A DNA stretch of 64,000 bases from sequence record AP018932; one strand, written 5' to 3'. This document shows, in pieces, positions 2,448-21,135 of the stretch (within the stretch, counting starts at the first letter, position 1; every line of letters begins with the position of its first letter). A program made the translations under genes and the position numbers. Source of the stretch: Escherichia phage KIT03. A model generated the notes under the pieces. It saw nothing but the letters and a program-made list of their open reading frames with translations, did no database searches and was not told where the DNA came from.

Positions 2448-4267
2448 TACTGGCTCATCCATTCTTTACGAAGGTCAGCATTATCTCCCATGAGCATTTC
2501 AAAAAGCTCTTTCCAGTTCTCAGGAAGTTTAACAACATCATATACTGGGTTTTGAATCATCTCACGATATTCAGATTTTTCCAAAGAGCCAAGTCCCTTA
2601 ATATAACGGATGCTATGTTTAGGTAGAGCATCTTTGGCACTCTCATATTCAGCGACTGTATAAAACCATTCTTGTTTTTTACCGACCTGAGCGATGATTA
2701 CAGGAGTTTTGACAAAGCGAATTCTTCCTTGTTCAAACAGTTCTGGCCAATTACTAAAAAATCCGAGCAGAGAAGGATAAATGCTTCCTAAACCATCATG
2801 GTCAGCATCGGTCATAATAGCAATATTATGATAATTCAAGTTTTCAGCTTTTTCACCAAGAACTAATCCAGTGATTGCGCAAATATCAAACAGTTCTTTG
2901 TTTTTAAGCATATCAGCATATGACATACCCCAACTGTTGAGAACTTTACCACGCAATGGATAACCACCATGAAGTTCTTTATCACGAACATCAATAAGAT
3001 ATCCGATAGCAGAATCACCCTCAGTCAAGAAAAGAGTAGTGTCAGCATCTTTACCGCAAAGATTCGCTTTGATATGTTTATGAACCTTAGCTTTAGAAGC
3101 CTTTTTAGCTGCTTTAGTTTCTGCTGCTTTTTCTGCTGCTAATTTACGTGCTAAAGCAGCTTCAATAATCGGCATTAAAATTGCTTCATTATTTAGAATA
3201 GCGCGTGAAATCTTTTTAGCATCAAGTTGAATATGACTACGAATTTCACCAAAAGGAGAAGTAAGTCGTTCTTTAGTTTGAGAATCAAATCGCATGTTTT
3301 TCATATCACGGACAAACATAACGATAGTCAAACATTCTTTGACACGTGCTTTAGTTACATCAATTTTGAACTTACGTTTGATTTGTGGAATAAGGTCTTC
3401 ACAAATATCATCCATAACACAGTCAATGTGATGGCCGCCATTCTTAGTGTGAATGTTATTCACATAAGTTAATTGACGAAATCCATCCGGTGAACGACCA
3501 ACCGCAATAGAACAATTTTCTTGTTCTTGAACAATAGCATGTTCATCATACTGCCGTGCATATTTCTTAAAATTGCCCTGAACCTTTTTACCATTAAAAG
3601 TAAATTGAATATCAGGATAAACAACAGCAAGTGTCTGGAGACGATCTAGTGTAATGTCAAGATAAACTTGGGACAGCTCATTAGTTTCAAATGACATAAA
3701 ATCAGGAATGAAAGTAACACGGGTTCCTTTCCATTTTCCTGGAATAGTTTCCCAGGATTTATTTTCCATGCCATTTGAACAACGAACTACAATATTATTT
3801 TGACCATCGCCAGTTTCACCGACAAACATCACAGAAAAAATGTTAGTTAAACTAGAACCAACACCATTCATACCACCGGTGACACGTTCTTTATCATCAC
3901 CAAAGTTACCACCTGCTTTTGGAATAGTCCATGCAGCAACAGGACCAGGAATTTCTTCACCGGTAGGTGTTTTAACCATTGCCTGTGGAATACCGCGACC
4001 GTTATCTTCAACTGTTACCTGATTATTTTTAATGGTAACATTAATTTTATTTGCGAATTTAAACTTAGTACGAATACCTTCATCGACTGAGTTATCGATA
4101 ATTTCATCAATAAGCTTAACAAGACCAGGTACATACTGAACACTTTCCCATTTACCAAACAGAAAGCGCTCATGCATTTCATTAGCAGAAGAGCCAATGT
4201 ACATGCCACTACGCTTTTTGATATGTTCAATATCGCTCAGAATTTTAATTTCATTCTTAATCATCAC
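2447..4267 (-). CDS. 39: DNA topoisomerase II large subunit, GyrB-like ATPase; single fused ORF covering T4 gp39 plus gp60
   Basis: 606-aa ORF with GyrB-type ATPase N-terminus and TOPRIM-like C-terminus; uninterrupted, unlike split T4 genes 39/60. Confidence 0.88.
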   Translation of the reverse strand: MMIKNEIKILSDIEHIKKRSGMYIGSSANEMHERFLFGKWESVQYVPGLVKLIDEIIDNSVDEGIRTKFKFANKINVTIKNNQVTVEDNGRGIPQAMVKTPTGEEIPGPVAAWTIPKAGGNFGDDKERVTGGMNGVGSSLTNIFSVMFVGETGDGQNNIVVRCSNGMENKSWETIPGKWKGTRVTFIPDFMSFETNELSQVYLDITLDRLQTLAVVYPDIQFTFNGKKVQGNFKKYARQYDEHAIVQEQENCSIAVGRSPDGFRQLTYVNNIHTKNGGHHIDCVMDDICEDLIPQIKRKFKIDVTKARVKECLTIVMFVRDMKNMRFDSQTKERLTSPFGEIRSHIQLDAKKISRAILNNEAILMPIIEAALARKLAAEKAAETKAAKKASKAKVHKHIKANLCGKDADTTLFLTEGDSAIGYLIDVRDKELHGGYPLRGKVLNSWGMSYADMLKNKELFDICAITGLVLGEKAENLNYHNIAIMTDADHDGLGSIYPSLLGFFSNWPELFEQGRIRFVKTPVIIAQVGKKQEWFYTVAEYESAKDALPKHSIRYIKGLGSLEKSEYREMIQNPVYDVVKLPENWKELFEMLMGDNADLRKEWMSQ

Positions 4268-6750: not shown

Positions 6751-7287
6751 TTAATTTAAAATAGCTACCACCGCACTACGAGGTACTACACTAAAATCAC
6801 CTGCATGAACAACGTTCAGAAGTTCAACACCATCTTCAAACCACTGGTCAGTTACCCAACCACAGACCGAAATAAATGGAGTCTTGATAGCTACCGCATG
6901 AGTTAGAAGGTCAGTAGGATCGCATTCTTGAAAGAGGATGAACTCTGCTTCATAAACCAGGATTTTCTCTATTTTGTTATTGTCTAAACGACGACCGTGG
7001 ACAATATAAGATTTAGTAAACCATTTACTTTTTTCAAAATCTTCAACAATAAATTCGCCTTCGCCAAAAACATCAGTCAGAGTTTTATGGCCGGAAATCA
7101 AGGCATTAGTTTTAATTTCAGGTTCAACCAGTTTGTAGGTTTTGCCAATTTCGATGGTCCGAGCAGTCATAAATGTTTCCTTAATTTCTAATGGTTTAAC
7201 AAGGGTGCCGTACATGCTTGCTATATCCATATCAAACGGTTTATCTACAGGATTCGGTGTGTATTTAGGATTATAATTAAATTTCAT
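6751..7287 (-). CDS. hypothetical protein, 178 aa; paralog of 6177-6674
   Basis: shared C-terminal motif with neighbour. Confidence 0.5.
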   Translation of the reverse strand: MKFNYNPKYTPNPVDKPFDMDIASMYGTLVKPLEIKETFMTARTIEIGKTYKLVEPEIKTNALISGHKTLTDVFGEGEFIVEDFEKSKWFTKSYIVHGRRLDNNKIEKILVYEAEFILFQECDPTDLLTHAVAIKTPFISVCGWVTDQWFEDGVELLNVVHAGDFSVVPRSAVVAILN

Positions 7288-7289
7288 AA

Positions 7290-7802
7290 TTATTTCATTT
7301 CAATAAAATCTATGAGTTCAGCATGCGATTTGCGGAACATTACTTGGTGCCCGCCAATGATAACTTCATCTTCAGGAACTTCATAAATCGCAATGTACAT
7401 TCCACGATCTTTTAAGTCTTCACGCTCTTCTCGGGTGAACCATCTCATCATATCATATTCACTAGCGAAAGCAAAATGATATAATGAAATAAGCCACAAT
7501 GGAATATAATTTTCAAATTGTGAATAATCTTTATTCCATTTAGTTTTAATAGCATCATTAGCATTTTCAACTAATAACTTATCATCGTGTGGAATAGGAA
7601 TACTTTCATGGCTTTCATAATTATCGCTATGATGATGAAATGACGATGAATTAATACCGCAAAATTTTAGCCAAGTTCGAGTTTTCATAGAATCAAATCC
7701 ACGATAAGGAGTTGATTGAACGCATAACTCTTGCCTAATTTTCACTATACCACTATCATCATTTAATGCGCTAAACGATGATTCAACACGATAAATTTTC
7801 AT
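7290..7802 (-). CDS. hypothetical protein, about 170 aa
   Basis: start moved to ATG at 7800-7802 (GAGGA RBS) because ORF-track start 7841 lies inside the promoter. Confidence 0.5.
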   Translation of the reverse strand: MKIYRVESSFSALNDDSGIVKIRQELCVQSTPYRGFDSMKTRTWLKFCGINSSSFHHHSDNYESHESIPIPHDDKLLVENANDAIKTKWNKDYSQFENYIPLWLISLYHFAFASEYDMMRWFTREEREDLKDRGMYIAIYEVPEDEVIIGGHQVMFRKSHAELIDFIEMK

Positions 7803-16475: not shown

Positions 16476-16676
16476 ATGGTACAAAAATTAATGGCACTTG
16501 TTAATGCCATAAAAGGTAATAAAAAACGTATAGCTTTTACTATTTCTGCTATGGTAGGAATTTTACTCTGGAACTTTATTTTATCACCAATTGCAATTGC
16601 ACATGGTGTTAATATTCCAGTAGTTACTCTTGATACATTCGTAGATCTAGCATTTGCTTTAGTTGGGTTAATTTAA
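16476..16676 (+). CDS. small hydrophobic protein, 66 aa, on the opposite strand
   Basis: AAGGAGG 4 nt before ATG; two hydrophobic segments; sits in the otherwise non-coding 56-61 interval. Confidence 0.4.
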   Translation: MVQKLMALVNAIKGNKKRIAFTISAMVGILLWNFILSPIAIAHGVNIPVVTLDTFVDLAFALVGLI

Positions 16677-17701
16677 ATCTTAGCATATTTAGATAGCCGC
16701 ATTTTAGCCATCAACCCCTGGGCAATATTATTTTTCATATATTCCATAATTTGTTCAGGGGTTGCACCTTCCTTTCTAATCATATCATTGACATCTTTTG
16801 ATTTCCAGGGAGATTTATCCCAAAACATAACCCTTTCTCCTGCATCAACTAATTTAGTCATTCGCTTGATAGTGTCAGGGTGACGAGGTTCATTATCTAA
16901 AACCCACACTCGTCTATCTTTAAATGGAACAACTTCTAGGTCTAATTGACCGCCAGTAATGGCTATACCATTTTCAATAAAAAGTGAATCGATAGGTCCT
17001 TCTAGAACATATACATCACCATCTTTAACTCGTTCAACACCGTAAATTTTTGTTGCCTCAGGATAAGCTTTAATGGTGATATATTTTTGAGGAGCATCTT
17101 TCTTTAATGCACGTCCTTGAAAAGACTCAGCTTTTCCATTAGCATTATAAATTGGAATAACAAGACGAGGCTCAGGAATTTCCTTTTTGTATGTTCCTGG
17201 TGCTATGCTATTAACTAATTTAGGCCATTCGGTTGTAAACCAAAGATATTTCCATTTATCCTTTGGAATACAACGAGCTTTTACGTATTTTATAATTGGA
17301 TGGTCTTCCGCCAGTTTATCTAATCTAACACATGACGGAAGAGATTTAATTATTTTCTTCTCAGGTTGTTTAGGAAGTTCTTTAGGTTTTTCTACTGGAC
17401 GACTTTTACCTTTTTCTTTTCTTATTTCAAAGATATACTCACGATATAAATCGGGTTCAAACTCCTTTAAATATATTCCGATTGGTGCATGATAGTTACA
17501 GTTATAACAATGAATATTTCCTTCATTATTATCACCATAATACCATCCACGAGCTTTATTTTGGTCGGTTTTTGAATCTCCACAAACAGGGCATCTAAAC
17601 CGCAATTTAAAAGTTGAACTATTATTTACTTGTGTGAATTTAGGTAAATGAGCTAATGCACGGTATGCAAACTCATTATCAATCCAAGGTATTGATGACA
17701 T
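16673..17701 (-). CDS. 61: DNA primase gp61
   Basis: 342 aa equals recalled T4 gp61 length; N-terminal zinc ribbon CPVCGDS...CYNC. Confidence 0.9.
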   Translation of the reverse strand: MSSIPWIDNEFAYRALAHLPKFTQVNNSSTFKLRFRCPVCGDSKTDQNKARGWYYGDNNEGNIHCYNCNYHAPIGIYLKEFEPDLYREYIFEIRKEKGKSRPVEKPKELPKQPEKKIIKSLPSCVRLDKLAEDHPIIKYVKARCIPKDKWKYLWFTTEWPKLVNSIAPGTYKKEIPEPRLVIPIYNANGKAESFQGRALKKDAPQKYITIKAYPEATKIYGVERVKDGDVYVLEGPIDSLFIENGIAITGGQLDLEVVPFKDRRVWVLDNEPRHPDTIKRMTKLVDAGERVMFWDKSPWKSKDVNDMIRKEGATPEQIMEYMKNNIAQGLMAKMRLSKYAKI

Positions 17702-17702
17702 T

Positions 17703-17868
17703 TTTACTCTTCTTTTTCTTTAGATTCCTCTTTTTTCTTTTTAGGAATCTGTTCAGGACCTTTATTTACTACAGCACCCGACGTTGTTCCAGTAGAGATA
17801 TTTTCAGGATTACCACCTGAATCTCCAGCTACCATATCTTCTTTGATAAATTCTTTATATGTTTTCAT
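17703..17868 (-). pseudogene. small ORF with capsid-targeting-sequence-like N-terminus (MKTYKEFIKE), interrupted by a frameshift in an A4 run
   Basis: frame from ATG 17868 stops at 17752; removing one A restores a 54-aa ORF ending next to the gene 61 start. Confidence 0.3.
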
Positions 17869-17910
17869 ATTAACCTCTATTCATAAAAGCATTAAAAATT
17901 TGGTCATCAA
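17861..17910 (-). repeat. about 45-nt direct repeat, copy 1 (3' end of gene plus junction)
   Basis: catattaacctctattcataaaagcattaaaaatttg... nearly identical to 18221-18269. Confidence 0.7.
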
Positions 17911-18226
17911 TCAATGGAATAGCAACTTTTTCTGCATCATTTAGCAAATCATTAATTTCATCAGATAGCATAACACATGTATCTTTATTTCCTGTAATTG
18001 TTACTGCGCAATTACGAACATTTTCTTTATTAAATTTTAGGTTAATATTTTCGTAATGAAAATCCTTTAATGCTGAATATATTTTTAAAATAAAATTGTC
18101 TTTTACTACAATAAACCCAACCTCACTATTAAAACGTGGCTCATGGAAACTGTAATAAACCTTTTCATCTATAAAATCGTATGAAATTTTTTCCATTTTT
18201 AAATATGAAAATTCAGAACTATACAT
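17870..18226 (-). CDS. hypothetical protein, 118 aa, C-terminus DDQIFNAFMNRG
   Basis: ORF; shares C-terminal tail with next gene. Confidence 0.5.
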   Translation of the reverse strand: MYSSEFSYLKMEKISYDFIDEKVYYSFHEPRFNSEVGFIVVKDNFILKIYSALKDFHYENINLKFNKENVRNCAVTITGNKDTCVMLSDEINDLLNDAEKVAIPLIDDQIFNAFMNRG

Positions 18227-18269
18227 ATTAACCTTTATTCATAAAAGCATTAAAAATTTGATCGTCAAT
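18221..18269 (-). repeat. about 45-nt direct repeat, copy 2
   Basis: matches 17861-17910 with 3 mismatches. Confidence 0.7.
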
Positions 18270-18854
18270 AGAAACTTTTACTTTAGGCTGTTCTTCAAAC
18301 GGTAATTCATATCCACATATTACAATTTTGTGATCGATACCAAAATGCACAGAAGCAATATGATTAATGTTATTTTCAGTAAAGTCTAAATCAACATCAA
18401 TATCTTTTTGACCACAGCCCAAAGGATAAATAATGCGAGTAATTCGATTATCTTTAACAAAGATTCCACCGACATACTCTGTGCTGAGTTTAAAGTCTAC
18501 ACGCCGACGAAATGAAAAATATTCAGGCTCTTTATGAGCTCGGCTCATAGGACACAACGAGTAACTAGAATAAGAGATGTCAAATCCTACACCTTCAATA
18601 TGAGCCAAAGTATTACGATTAAACCAATTATAATCGTACGCCAAATCCATTAGATTATAATATGTAAAAGGCACCGGATTAACATCATTAGTCACAAGCA
18701 TGTAATTAGCAACTGCTATAATTTCATTGTTTTTAACGAATACAAACCGTGATTGATGCGAATGACCTGGACCCGCGTTTTCACGATTAATGATATAACA
18801 CTGGGCACCTTTATATTTGTATGTATCTTTGCACTTGTGCATTTGATAGAGCAT
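18228..18854 (-). CDS. hypothetical protein, 208 aa, C-terminus DDQIFNAFMNKG (T4 61.2 position)
   Basis: ORF; paralogous tail. Confidence 0.55.
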   Translation of the reverse strand: MLYQMHKCKDTYKYKGAQCYIINRENAGPGHSHQSRFVFVKNNEIIAVANYMLVTNDVNPVPFTYYNLMDLAYDYNWFNRNTLAHIEGVGFDISYSSYSLCPMSRAHKEPEYFSFRRRVDFKLSTEYVGGIFVKDNRITRIIYPLGCGQKDIDVDLDFTENNINHIASVHFGIDHKIVICGYELPFEEQPKVKVSIDDQIFNAFMNKG

Positions 18855-19147
18855 TATTCACCTACCACTTCAGCGATGATATTTTTATTATTAAAGTTTT
18901 TATCGCAATATAGAACATAATTATACTGCATTACACCACCAGACTTAAGCTGTTTTTGCACTTCAGCTTTCATTTCAGGACGATCACGCTCAACGATATT
19001 CATAATATCTGCTTCAATTTGGGTTTCAACTTCAGTCTGATCTGCAGTCATAGACCACTCACACAAATCTTTGTCATAACCCGCCATAGCAGGCTGAGCA
19101 GCGCAAGAAGATAAAGCAAAAATTGCAGCAAAGATAAATTTTTTCAT
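18854..19147 (-). CDS. sp: Spackle periplasmic protein
   Basis: 97 aa with cleavable signal peptide; length and position match recalled T4 sp. Confidence 0.7.
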   Translation of the reverse strand: MKKFIFAAIFALSSCAAQPAMAGYDKDLCEWSMTADQTEVETQIEADIMNIVERDRPEMKAEVQKQLKSGGVMQYNYVLYCDKNFNNKNIIAEVVGE

Positions 19148-19207: not shown

Positions 19208-19465
19208 TTATTTTAAAACTTCTGCATAATCACATGTTACAAACTGTTTCTCTAGTTTAATAATTTTACGAAAGTATCTTTTGCATTGACGAATCTGCCG
19301 CTTCGTAGGGCGCACAGCAAACTTAATAAATTCCACTCGACCAAATGGAGGGCTTTCTTCTGCCGGAATATCTAACACCAATTCCCACGTATCTGCAACA
19401 AGTGCTTTGAATTGAGTATTTTTCCTGACGTTATACGGAGTAGGTTTAAATAAAACGATATGCAT
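19208..19465 (-). CDS. hypothetical protein, about 85 aa (61.4 position)
   Basis: ATG at 19463-19465 with GAGGA RBS; ORF-track start is a TTG extension overlapping dmd. Confidence 0.45.
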   Translation of the reverse strand: MHIVLFKPTPYNVRKNTQFKALVADTWELVLDIPAEESPPFGRVEFIKFAVRPTKRQIRQCKRYFRKIIKLEKQFVTCDYAEVLK

Positions 19466-19466
19466 A

Positions 19467-19649
19467 TTATCCTCGGCAATCCACTTCACATACTTTCTTA
19501 TCATCAATGAAAGCTTTAACTAGCGCTTTATTAACTTCAGCATATTGAGTAGTAGCCCATTGAACGTCATCTTTCATCATTGTGATTTCTTTAGTAAACA
19601 TGCTTTCGTTCTTAAACCACCCCATAAAAACTACCTTTACCAATTCCAT
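19467..19649 (-). CDS. dmd: Dmd, antitoxin against RnlA/LsoA
   Basis: 60 aa equals recalled T4 Dmd length; position just upstream of sp and downstream of gene 41. Confidence 0.65.
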   Translation of the reverse strand: MELVKVVFMGWFKNESMFTKEITMMKDDVQWATTQYAEVNKALVKAFIDDKKVCEVDCRG

Positions 19650-19678: not shown

Positions 19679-19708
19679 ACTATACCATAGTCTTGTCGGC
19701 TTGTAAAC
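19679..19708 (-). promoter_or_regulatory. T4 early-type promoter
   Basis: GTTTAC-n18-TATAGT with TG extension. Confidence 0.55.
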
Positions 19709-21135
19709 TAAAATTTTAATTCATTCGCTAAAGCATCTAACTGAGCTCGAGCAGATTCGTTTCTTTGATAGCGATTCTGTTCAGCCTGAATCTGCTGTGA
19801 ACCTGCTACTTCACTCACTTCGGTTGGAGTAGAATCTTGCTCAATTTCTACCCATTTCTGATTTCCTTTTTGAACACCCATCAAAAACTTATTCCATTTG
19901 TTCTTATCACCATATCGTGATTTGATTTGCTTAATGAGTTGTTGTTCAGCAGCTGCTAGCTCCTCGGTTTCAATGACCGCAAGCATAAAATCGGCTGTTG
20001 CTGGAAGACCGGCAGATTCTGCAATATCGCTCATGTTAACATCAGAAGAGTCCCAAGCTTGCTTACCAACCTGTGCTGCAGTCCAAAGAACAGTTTCGGT
20101 TTCAACAGCAAGAGCACGCAATTCTTCTGCGATGGCTTTAACAGTTGTGTAACTATTTTCTGAATAAACTCTGATGCGGCAAGATTTACAAATACCTAGA
20201 TAGTCGACAATAATGATTGTTGGAACAAAATTCTTCTTGAGCTTTAATTCATTTAAAAGTGATCGAAATGTATTAGCGTCTGCTCCACCAGTAGGATATT
20301 GCTTAACGATTAAACGACCGAGAGTAGATTTCTCACGCCATTTTTCCATTTTTCCTTTATACTCGGCATAAGAAATATGTCCATCATCAATATCGTCAAG
20401 AGAAACATCGAGCATGTTAGCATCAATACGTTTAGCACAGACTTCTTCTGCCATTTCCATGGAGATATAAAGAACGTTATGACCAAGCTGCAAATAATCT
20501 GCTGCTAATGAACAAAGTCCTAATGATTTACCAACGTTAACGCCAGCCATTAAAACGTTCAGTGTTCCAGTCTCAGCTCCGCCTTTAGTAATTTTATTTA
20601 GAATTTTGAGTCTAAATGGAACCTTACGAGCTTTATTCATATAAGATAGCCAGCGTGCTTCGTAGTCATCCATCCAATCATGACCAACGTAGCTATCAAA
20701 TGAAATTGATAATGCTTGACGCATGATGTCAGGAATAGCACCAACATCCGGCATTTTCTTATTTCGTTTTTCCGGAGGAAGCTCAGCATTAGTTTGAATT
20801 TCAATTATTTTAGACGTAGCATTAAACATCGCCCTTTGCTGAACATATTTTTCTGTTTCTTTTACTAACCAGTTGTGGTCTTCTGGAGAATCAGCCAGTT
20901 TTGAAATAAGTGTTTTTACACCAGAATATTCTGTTTCAGTAAATGAACTATTTTCTAATGCAACATTTAACGCATTAATAGATGGAACGCTATGATACTC
21001 ATTAACATGAGATTTAATTAATTTGAATGTATTTTTAGCTGGACCACTTTCAAAATATTCTGAATCCATATATGGCCAAACTTTTGAAAAATAAGCTTGA
21101 TCAAATATGAGATGAGAAAGAATAATTTCTACCAC
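19708..21135 (-). CDS. 41: replicative DNA helicase gp41 (DnaB family)
   Basis: 475 aa equals recalled T4 gp41 length; Walker A GVNVGKS. Confidence 0.9.
   Translation of the reverse strand: MVEIILSHLIFDQAYFSKVWPYMDSEYFESGPAKNTFKLIKSHVNEYHSVPSINALNVALENSSFTETEYSGVKTLISKLADSPEDHNWLVKETEKYVQQRAMFNATSKIIEIQTNAELPPEKRNKKMPDVGAIPDIMRQALSISFDSYVGHDWMDDYEARWLSYMNKARKVPFRLKILNKITKGGAETGTLNVLMAGVNVGKSLGLCSLAADYLQLGHNVLYISMEMAEEVCAKRIDANMLDVSLDDIDDGHISYAEYKGKMEKWREKSTLGRLIVKQYPTGGADANTFRSLLNELKLKKNFVPTIIIVDYLGICKSCRIRVYSENSYTTVKAIAEELRALAVETETVLWTAAQVGKQAWDSSDVNMSDIAESAGLPATADFMLAVIETEELAAAEQQLIKQIKSRYGDKNKWNKFLMGVQKGNQKWVEIEQDSTPTEVSEVAGSQQIQAEQNRYQRNESARAQLDALANELKF

Follow-up and report, generated by a model that had tools for sequence, protein, structure and literature searches.

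A 46-nt repeat at two gene junctions of a T4-like phage is probably the footprint of a C-terminal peptide common to AdfA and a putative single-domain paralog

AdfA is among the few characterised phage inhibitors of the DarTG defence. An R164H change in RB69 AdfA enables binding and neutralisation of DarT1, and T4-like alleles naturally have His at this position. Neutralisation of DarT1 has been published only for RB69 AdfA(R164H) and for T4 AdfA supplied in trans. The gene equated with adfA in T4 is 61.2 (PMC9391042, PMC11825919). In experimental evolution T4 acquired tandem amplifications and deletions in the dmd-tifA locus, next to adfA, via homologies of 6-10 bp (Srikant et al., eLife 2022, PMC9391042), and this region, comprising dmd, tifA/61.4 and adfA, was named the 'anti-TA island' by the same authors.

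The window, by which we mean the whole stretch of DNA analyzed (64 kb), is the start of a T4-like (Tequatrovirus) genome. The ORF listing places the region considered here within an early-gene block, with every gene on the minus strand. In gene order these are gp41 (19708-21135, 475 aa), dmd (19467-19649, 60 aa), a 61.4/tifA-like ORF (19208-19507, 99 aa, Pfam DUF7279), sp (spackle, 61.3; 18854-19147, 97 aa, Pfam PF25676 with E=2.8e-45), a 208-aa gene (18228-18854, phrog_3781), a 118-aa gene (17870-18226, phrog_4122), 61.1 (17704-17868, 54 aa, phrog_1823) and the gp61 primase gene (16673-17701, 342 aa). The product of 61.1 is identical to T4 gp61.1 in 52 of 54 residues. At the far end a hydrophobic ORF of 66 aa on the plus strand (16476-16676) shares 4 nt with the 3' end of the primase gene; its equivalent in the T2 record is annotated as similar to RB69ORF029w.

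The locus resembles the T4 anti-TA island (PMC9391042) in its neighbourhood, in its small, early, translationally coupled genes that counter toxin-antitoxin defences, and in a gene content that appears to vary by short-homology recombination. It differs in two respects. The homology in the window consists of 46 nt coding for a conserved peptide, whereas chance microhomologies of 6-10 bp were used in the published work; the longer stretch makes a far better substrate for recombination. In addition, the polymorphism occurs naturally and is stable, with three haplotypes spread over hundreds of isolates, and is not a product of laboratory selection.

The 208-aa gene is identified as adfA, the ortholog of T4 61.2 and of RB69 adfA, by several lines of sequence comparison. 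Its product matches Pfam PF23813, 'Anti-DarT factor A', over the full length (E=8.8e-134; score 443.9 bits, curated cut-off 27), the alignment running from residue 1 to 208 and from profile position 1 to 211. Identity is 92.8% with T4 gp61.2 and 69.7% with RB69-type AdfA, and the order sp-61.2-61.1-61 matches that of T4. The original prediction had placed this gene at the T4 61.2 position and tentatively suggested a link to AdfA; the profile match, the identity, the synteny and the literature all bear this out. His165 of the window protein is the equivalent of RB69 AdfA residue 164 (NINHIAS here and NINRIAS in the RB69 type), the numbering offset having been confirmed from the published primer start MHKNAPFK. 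A sequence search found no relative of AdfA in the PDB.

AdfA itself appears to be composite. When its N half (residues 1-100) and C half (101-194) were compared without the tail, hhalign gave P=4.9e-4 over 70 columns, the likeness being centred on an FVK(D/N)N-I motif. The family of the 118-aa protein, below called the short family, also resembles the N half (hhalign P=0.0012). Because of these two matches, AdfA appears to consist of a domain of about 100 aa, internally duplicated, and a tail, and the short gene looks like one copy of that domain followed by the same tail.

The repeat search identified a direct repeat of 46 nt at 17866-17911 and 18224-18269, with 43 of 46 positions identical and a start-to-start spacing of 358. 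With up to three mismatches allowed, the 64-kb window has exactly two occurrences of the 46-mer, and the 100 dinucleotide-preserving shuffles have none. No other DNA-level similarity between the 118-aa and 208-aa genes was found by this search beyond the repeat. On the minus strand each copy comprises the last 13 codons of one gene, its TAA, a single T and the start codon (ATG) of the gene that follows. In gene orientation it reads ATT GAY GAY CAA ATT TTT AAT GCT TTT ATG AAT A(G/A)A GGT TAA T ATG, and the encoded tail peptide is IDDQIFNAFMN(R/K)G. The C-terminus of the 118-aa ORF is IDDQIFNAFMNRG and that of the 208-aa ORF is IDDQIFNAFMNKG, each followed directly by the stop codon.

In copy 1 the 13 terminal codons of the short gene (17873-17911, coding for IDDQIFNAFMNRG) are followed by the TAA at 17870-17872, the 1-nt spacer at 17869 and the 61.1 ATG at 17866-17868; the start of 61.1 is thus coupled to the tail of the upstream 118-aa gene. 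A Shine-Dalgarno sequence, GAGG, is located at 17874-17877 inside the Arg-Gly codons (AGA GGT), 5 nt ahead of this ATG. Copy 2 is built likewise from the 13 terminal adfA codons (18231-18269, coding for IDDQIFNAFMNKG), the TAA at 18228-18230, the spacer at 18227 and the ATG of the short gene at 18224-18226; its Shine-Dalgarno sequence, AAGG (18232-18235), falls in the Lys-Gly codons and is the weaker one. In both copies, therefore, the Shine-Dalgarno sequence of the following gene is formed by the two final codons (AGA/AAA GGT). Reading both copies confirmed what had been described from the DNA at the outset, namely two minus-strand ORFs ending in DDQIFNAFMN(R/K)G and a repeat that spans the stop codon, a short spacer and the next ATG. 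The repeat itself had been correctly noticed, and its length was corrected from 45 to 46 nt. Upstream of this pair the stop codon of sp, the upstream neighbour of adfA, overlaps the adfA start (TAATG). In the region 19208-19649 the tifA/61.4-like ORF adjoins dmd; with the T4-equivalent ATG (19463-19465) the dmd stop lies 1 nt upstream, and if that ATG is used the junction has the same stop, 1-nt and ATG coupling as the adfA, short-gene and 61.1 junctions.

The repetition could be explained by conservation of what the DNA encodes. We compared the tail in about 30 loci of three gene families from T4-, T2-, RB69-, VR25- and IME341-like phages and from several uncultured T4-like contigs of about 170 kb. 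DDQIFNAFM is invariant in all of them, the C-terminal peptide of the family being (I/V)DDQIFNAFM(N/K)(R/K)G. Six of the DDQIFNAFM codons have synonymous variants (GAT/GAC at both Asp, CAA/CAG, ATT/ATA, GCT/GCA/GCC and TTT/TTC), and the stop codon that follows is TAA or TGA. Since the peptide is invariant and the codons vary, selection acts on the tail at the peptide level. The stop, 1 nt, ATG arrangement precedes four different downstream genes, namely 61.1, the short gene, the tifA-like gene and RB69 ORF033c. We consider it likely that the 46-nt repeat is the footprint of a conserved peptide and a coupling junction, and no leftover of a recent duplication.

The main alternative is that the 3' ends owe their DNA identity to recent tandem duplication or to gene conversion that is still going on, so that recombination and not selection on the peptide maintains the repeat. 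The tails are 93% identical in genes whose bodies have no DNA-level similarity, the same Asp wobble variants (GATGAC, GACGAT, GATGAT) are found in the tails of both paralogs in different phages, the two tails of one metagenomic locus (L029, described below) are one nucleotide apart, and T4 readily recombines at short homologies. However, 9 of 11 degenerate codons are the same where 6.3 were expected from the identical residues and the window's own codon usage (P=0.085). This identity is not significantly above the codon-bias expectation; it is no evidence of recent duplication, and neither recent duplication nor gene conversion is needed to account for it. Orthologous tails of other genera keep the peptide and change the codons, and in every locus the K/R codon is tied to the downstream gene, which shows any homogenisation to be incomplete. 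Finally, the bodies of the short protein and AdfA are only about 30% identical, from which it follows that the duplication is old. Recent duplication or conversion is therefore unlikely. The view that the repeat reflects tandem duplication or module exchange was broadly right, inasmuch as paralogs and three haplotypes are found; the DNA repeat in itself is not a signature of it.

A conserved peptide could also be a portable module carried by unrelated proteins, in which case the 118-aa gene would be no true paralog of AdfA. Much of the apparent similarity does reside in the tail. BLASTP aligned the 118-aa protein with AdfA residues 109-208 at 36% identity over 106 aa (E=1e-9), and found nothing significant when the last 14 residues were removed from both proteins. 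The PF23813 score of the short protein, 32.8 bits against the cut-off of 27 for residues 22-118 aligned to profile positions 113-211, derives mostly from the tail. An exhaustive search added two divergent members of the short family, P0022 (48% identity) and P0024 (40%), which match PF23813 through their tails alone (23 and 26 bits). AlphaFold2 models of both proteins, built from shallow family alignments, had mean pLDDT values of 56.8 and 44.0, too poor for a comparison of folds.

Comparisons from which the tail had been removed argue against this reading. A Smith-Waterman score of 54 between the 118-aa protein and AdfA was reached by only 3 of 2000 shuffles. Comparison of the family alignments with hhalign gave P=0.0024, and P=3.4e-4 over 59 columns once P0022 and P0024 had been added, in a register collinear with the tail-anchored alignment. 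The core shared by the two families consists of the motif VG-I-VKDN-I---Y followed by (F)-x-(K/E)-N-(V/I), with VG-I-VKDN-I-I-Y common to both bodies, and under this alignment the first three predicted strands coincide, at low model confidence. At roughly 7-10 bits the signal from the bodies is weak. Confinement of the similarity to the tail, which would have spoken against the initial reading, is thus not observed. With confidence that is good though incomplete, we regard the 118-aa protein as a distant paralog of the C-terminal half of AdfA; a portable tail on an unrelated protein appears distinctly improbable.

The short gene is accordingly placed within the already known AdfA family as a single-domain form. 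Like AdfA (T4 gp61.2, RB69 AdfA, PF23813) it has a recognizable, if weak, C-terminal domain, the invariant tail and a score above the Pfam cut-off. Unlike AdfA it has one domain and not two, belongs to a PHROG of its own (4122) and has no counterpart of AdfA residues 1-105, and so does not have the two-domain architecture of about 208-216 aa. In the BLASTP and hhalign alignments the residue equivalent to AdfA 164 is Asn72 (NVRNCA against NINHIA); P0022 and P0024 have Asp at this position, and neither has His or Arg. Within Tequatrovirus the short proteins are 73-96% identical to each other, and they are 44-50% identical to their Gaprivervirus counterparts. No description of the short paralog was found in the literature searched, and the genomic context of P0024, the most divergent homolog, was not found in IMG/VR. 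Two much larger proteins, P0023 (1370 aa, E=5e-9) and P0025 (968 aa, E=5e-4), matched residues 47-105 or so of the 118-aa protein in 6-7 short stretches; this similarity is probably compositional (N/K-rich).

A third family with the same tail was found in other T4-like phages. Gaprivervirus VR25 (L014, 1562-2360) has sp, a 145-aa tail-bearing gene (VR25_038), a 119-aa short paralog with the tail and a tifA-like gene. A 146-aa counterpart is present in an IME341-like phage (L008, 369-809), and the family was also seen in other T4-like contigs of about 170 kb. As in the window, these 145/146-aa genes directly follow sp and end in (I/V)DDQIFNAFM(N/K)R(G/D), then stop, 1 nt and ATG, and in VR25 the tails stand in tandem in the same way. 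The VR25 arrangement indicates that tandem tail-bearing genes are old and not confined to Tequatrovirus. Unlike the AdfA and short families, their bodies have no significant sequence similarity to either (P>=0.08); the 146-aa protein matches PF23813 only via its tail and the VR25 145-aa protein matches no Pfam family, which are points in favour of a portable tail. We also considered the VR25 145-aa and 119-aa pair as the product of fission or fusion of AdfA; this was unsupported, since homology of the 145/146-aa proteins to AdfA or the short family is not significant.

The repeat spans gene junctions, recurs before four different downstream genes and has last codons that act as a ribosome-binding site, and yet it is very improbable that it is a nucleic-acid element such as an RNA hairpin, a terminator or promoter, or a recombination site like the T4-type PeSL cassettes. 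Folding at both junctions is no better than that of shuffled sequence (z about +0.6 for each), terminator-like sites were not detected, and both copies are free of promoter-like sites on the coding (minus) strand. Synonymous changes accumulate in the tail across genera while the peptide is invariant, and an RNA role is plausible only for the Shine-Dalgarno sequence, the stop and start codons and their immediate surroundings, some 15 nt in all.

We favour, as the probable explanation of the repeat, two old AdfA-family paralogs with a shared C-terminal peptide and coupling junction, and its distribution among phage records is informative on how the locus varies. The whole 118-aa gene is contained in 297 of 654 region-matching phage records; the remaining records match only its first 41-42 nt, which correspond to the tail of their own adfA or of a related gene. 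Junction-specific queries of 201 nt split the records into three haplotypes: adfA followed by the short gene as in the window (156 records), adfA followed directly by 61.1 as in T4, with adfA only (233 records), and sp followed by the short gene without adfA as in T2 (141 records), all counts being based on the GenBank phage collection, which is dominated by Tequatrovirus and contains duplicate records. The first and third classes add up to 297, which is also the count of records that contain the complete short gene. Pattern scans of IMG/VR and of metagenomes yielded few loci (9 and 3). Nearly half of the matching records (about 300 of 654, nearly all Tequatrovirus and including T2) thus carry a single-domain AdfA-like gene, and the repeat coincides with the boundary of this common presence/absence polymorphism.

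The T4 junction between 61.2 and 61.1 is nucleotide-identical to the junction between the short gene and 61.1 in the window. Therefore the adfA-only and adfA-plus-short haplotypes differ by exactly one repeat period, 358 nt, a difference such as unequal recombination between the tails may have produced. The adfA tail ahead of the short gene was of the K type (AAAGG) in 5 of 5 independent contigs, and the tail ahead of 61.1 was of the R type (AGAGG) in every locus examined, so that the last codons travel with the downstream gene. The metagenomic T4-like contig OIWM01000017.1 (L029, about 7000-7420) carries a T4-type 3' allele of adfA (SEKQSKVNVS) ahead of the K codon and the short gene, and a single nucleotide differs between the tails; judged from these alleles, the contig looks like a recombinant between haplotypes.

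The T2-type locus (T2, MH751506.1; L013, 1686-2514) contains sp, a 12-nt spacer TTAGAGGTTAGT, the 118-aa short gene and 61.1, with no full-length adfA. The sequence following the sp stop is TTAGAGGTTAGTATG, and the spacer resembles a remnant of the tail-end ribosome-binding site (AGAGGTTAATATG). Neither a simple microhomology deletion nor a simple tail-mediated event reproduces the sequence of the sp-to-short junction, which counts against a tail-to-tail recombination route at this point. T2 has been described in published work as 'naturally lacking an adfA homolog', and the short paralog appears to have been overlooked there. T2 delta-adfN cannot plaque on DarTG1 cells, and since this phage has the short gene only, the short protein at its native level does not seem to neutralise that DarT1. 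The evidence is not decisive, because the same failure holds for T4 despite its DarT1-active AdfA.

On the explanation by two old paralogs, the history of the locus may be outlined as follows. An AdfA-type domain would have been duplicated in tandem repeatedly, within adfA as well as in the form of a separate gene. The 46-nt homology would now serve as a substrate for the efficient short-homology recombination of T4, which may add or remove the short-gene cassette and reassort the short gene with different alleles of adfA.

The likeliest role of the short protein is that of a second toxin-binding counter-defence factor of the anti-TA island. We infer such a role because the ORF is conserved intact, lies in that island and can replace adfA, as in the T2 type. 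The protein corresponds to the half of AdfA that holds the DarT1 specificity residue and has Asn there instead of His or Arg; its target would probably be a DarT variant or another toxin, different from that of AdfA.

A bolder suggestion, which we regard as possible and rather doubtful, is that the 13-residue tail functions as a peptide in its own right, for docking or for inhibition, with the fast-evolving AdfA-type domains conferring specificity and the tail DNA providing homology for swapping. The one conserved partner of the tail could be a surface common to DarT-family toxins, or else a replication factor of phage or host. We compared the tail with the gp45-clamp-binding C-terminus of gp43, which in the window ends in SLDFLFG, and judged the likeness by eye to be unconvincing. 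If the suggestion is correct, the tail DNA would let T4-like phages swap, stack and drop cassettes (AdfA, short and 145/146-aa) downstream of spackle; the result would be a small combinatorial counter-defence locus in which the short paralog would neutralise a toxin other than E. coli DarT1. The absolutely conserved C-terminal peptide in all forms points to where function may reside, and the three natural haplotypes are ready material on what selection acts on in the two genes.

Two further observations were made in the course of the comparison. The annotation of Shigella phage Shf125875 (L003, Mosigvirus; 1501-1583) gives a truncated adfA. A frame shift occurs at an A-run, beyond which the conserved tail is encoded, unannotated, in another frame; the shift is either a mutation or a sequencing error. 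In three uncultured T4-like contigs of about 170.5 kb (L020, L023 and L024; about 3012-3060) TGA replaces TAA at the tail junction (GGTTGATATG), and the tails have several synonymous changes and the same peptide.
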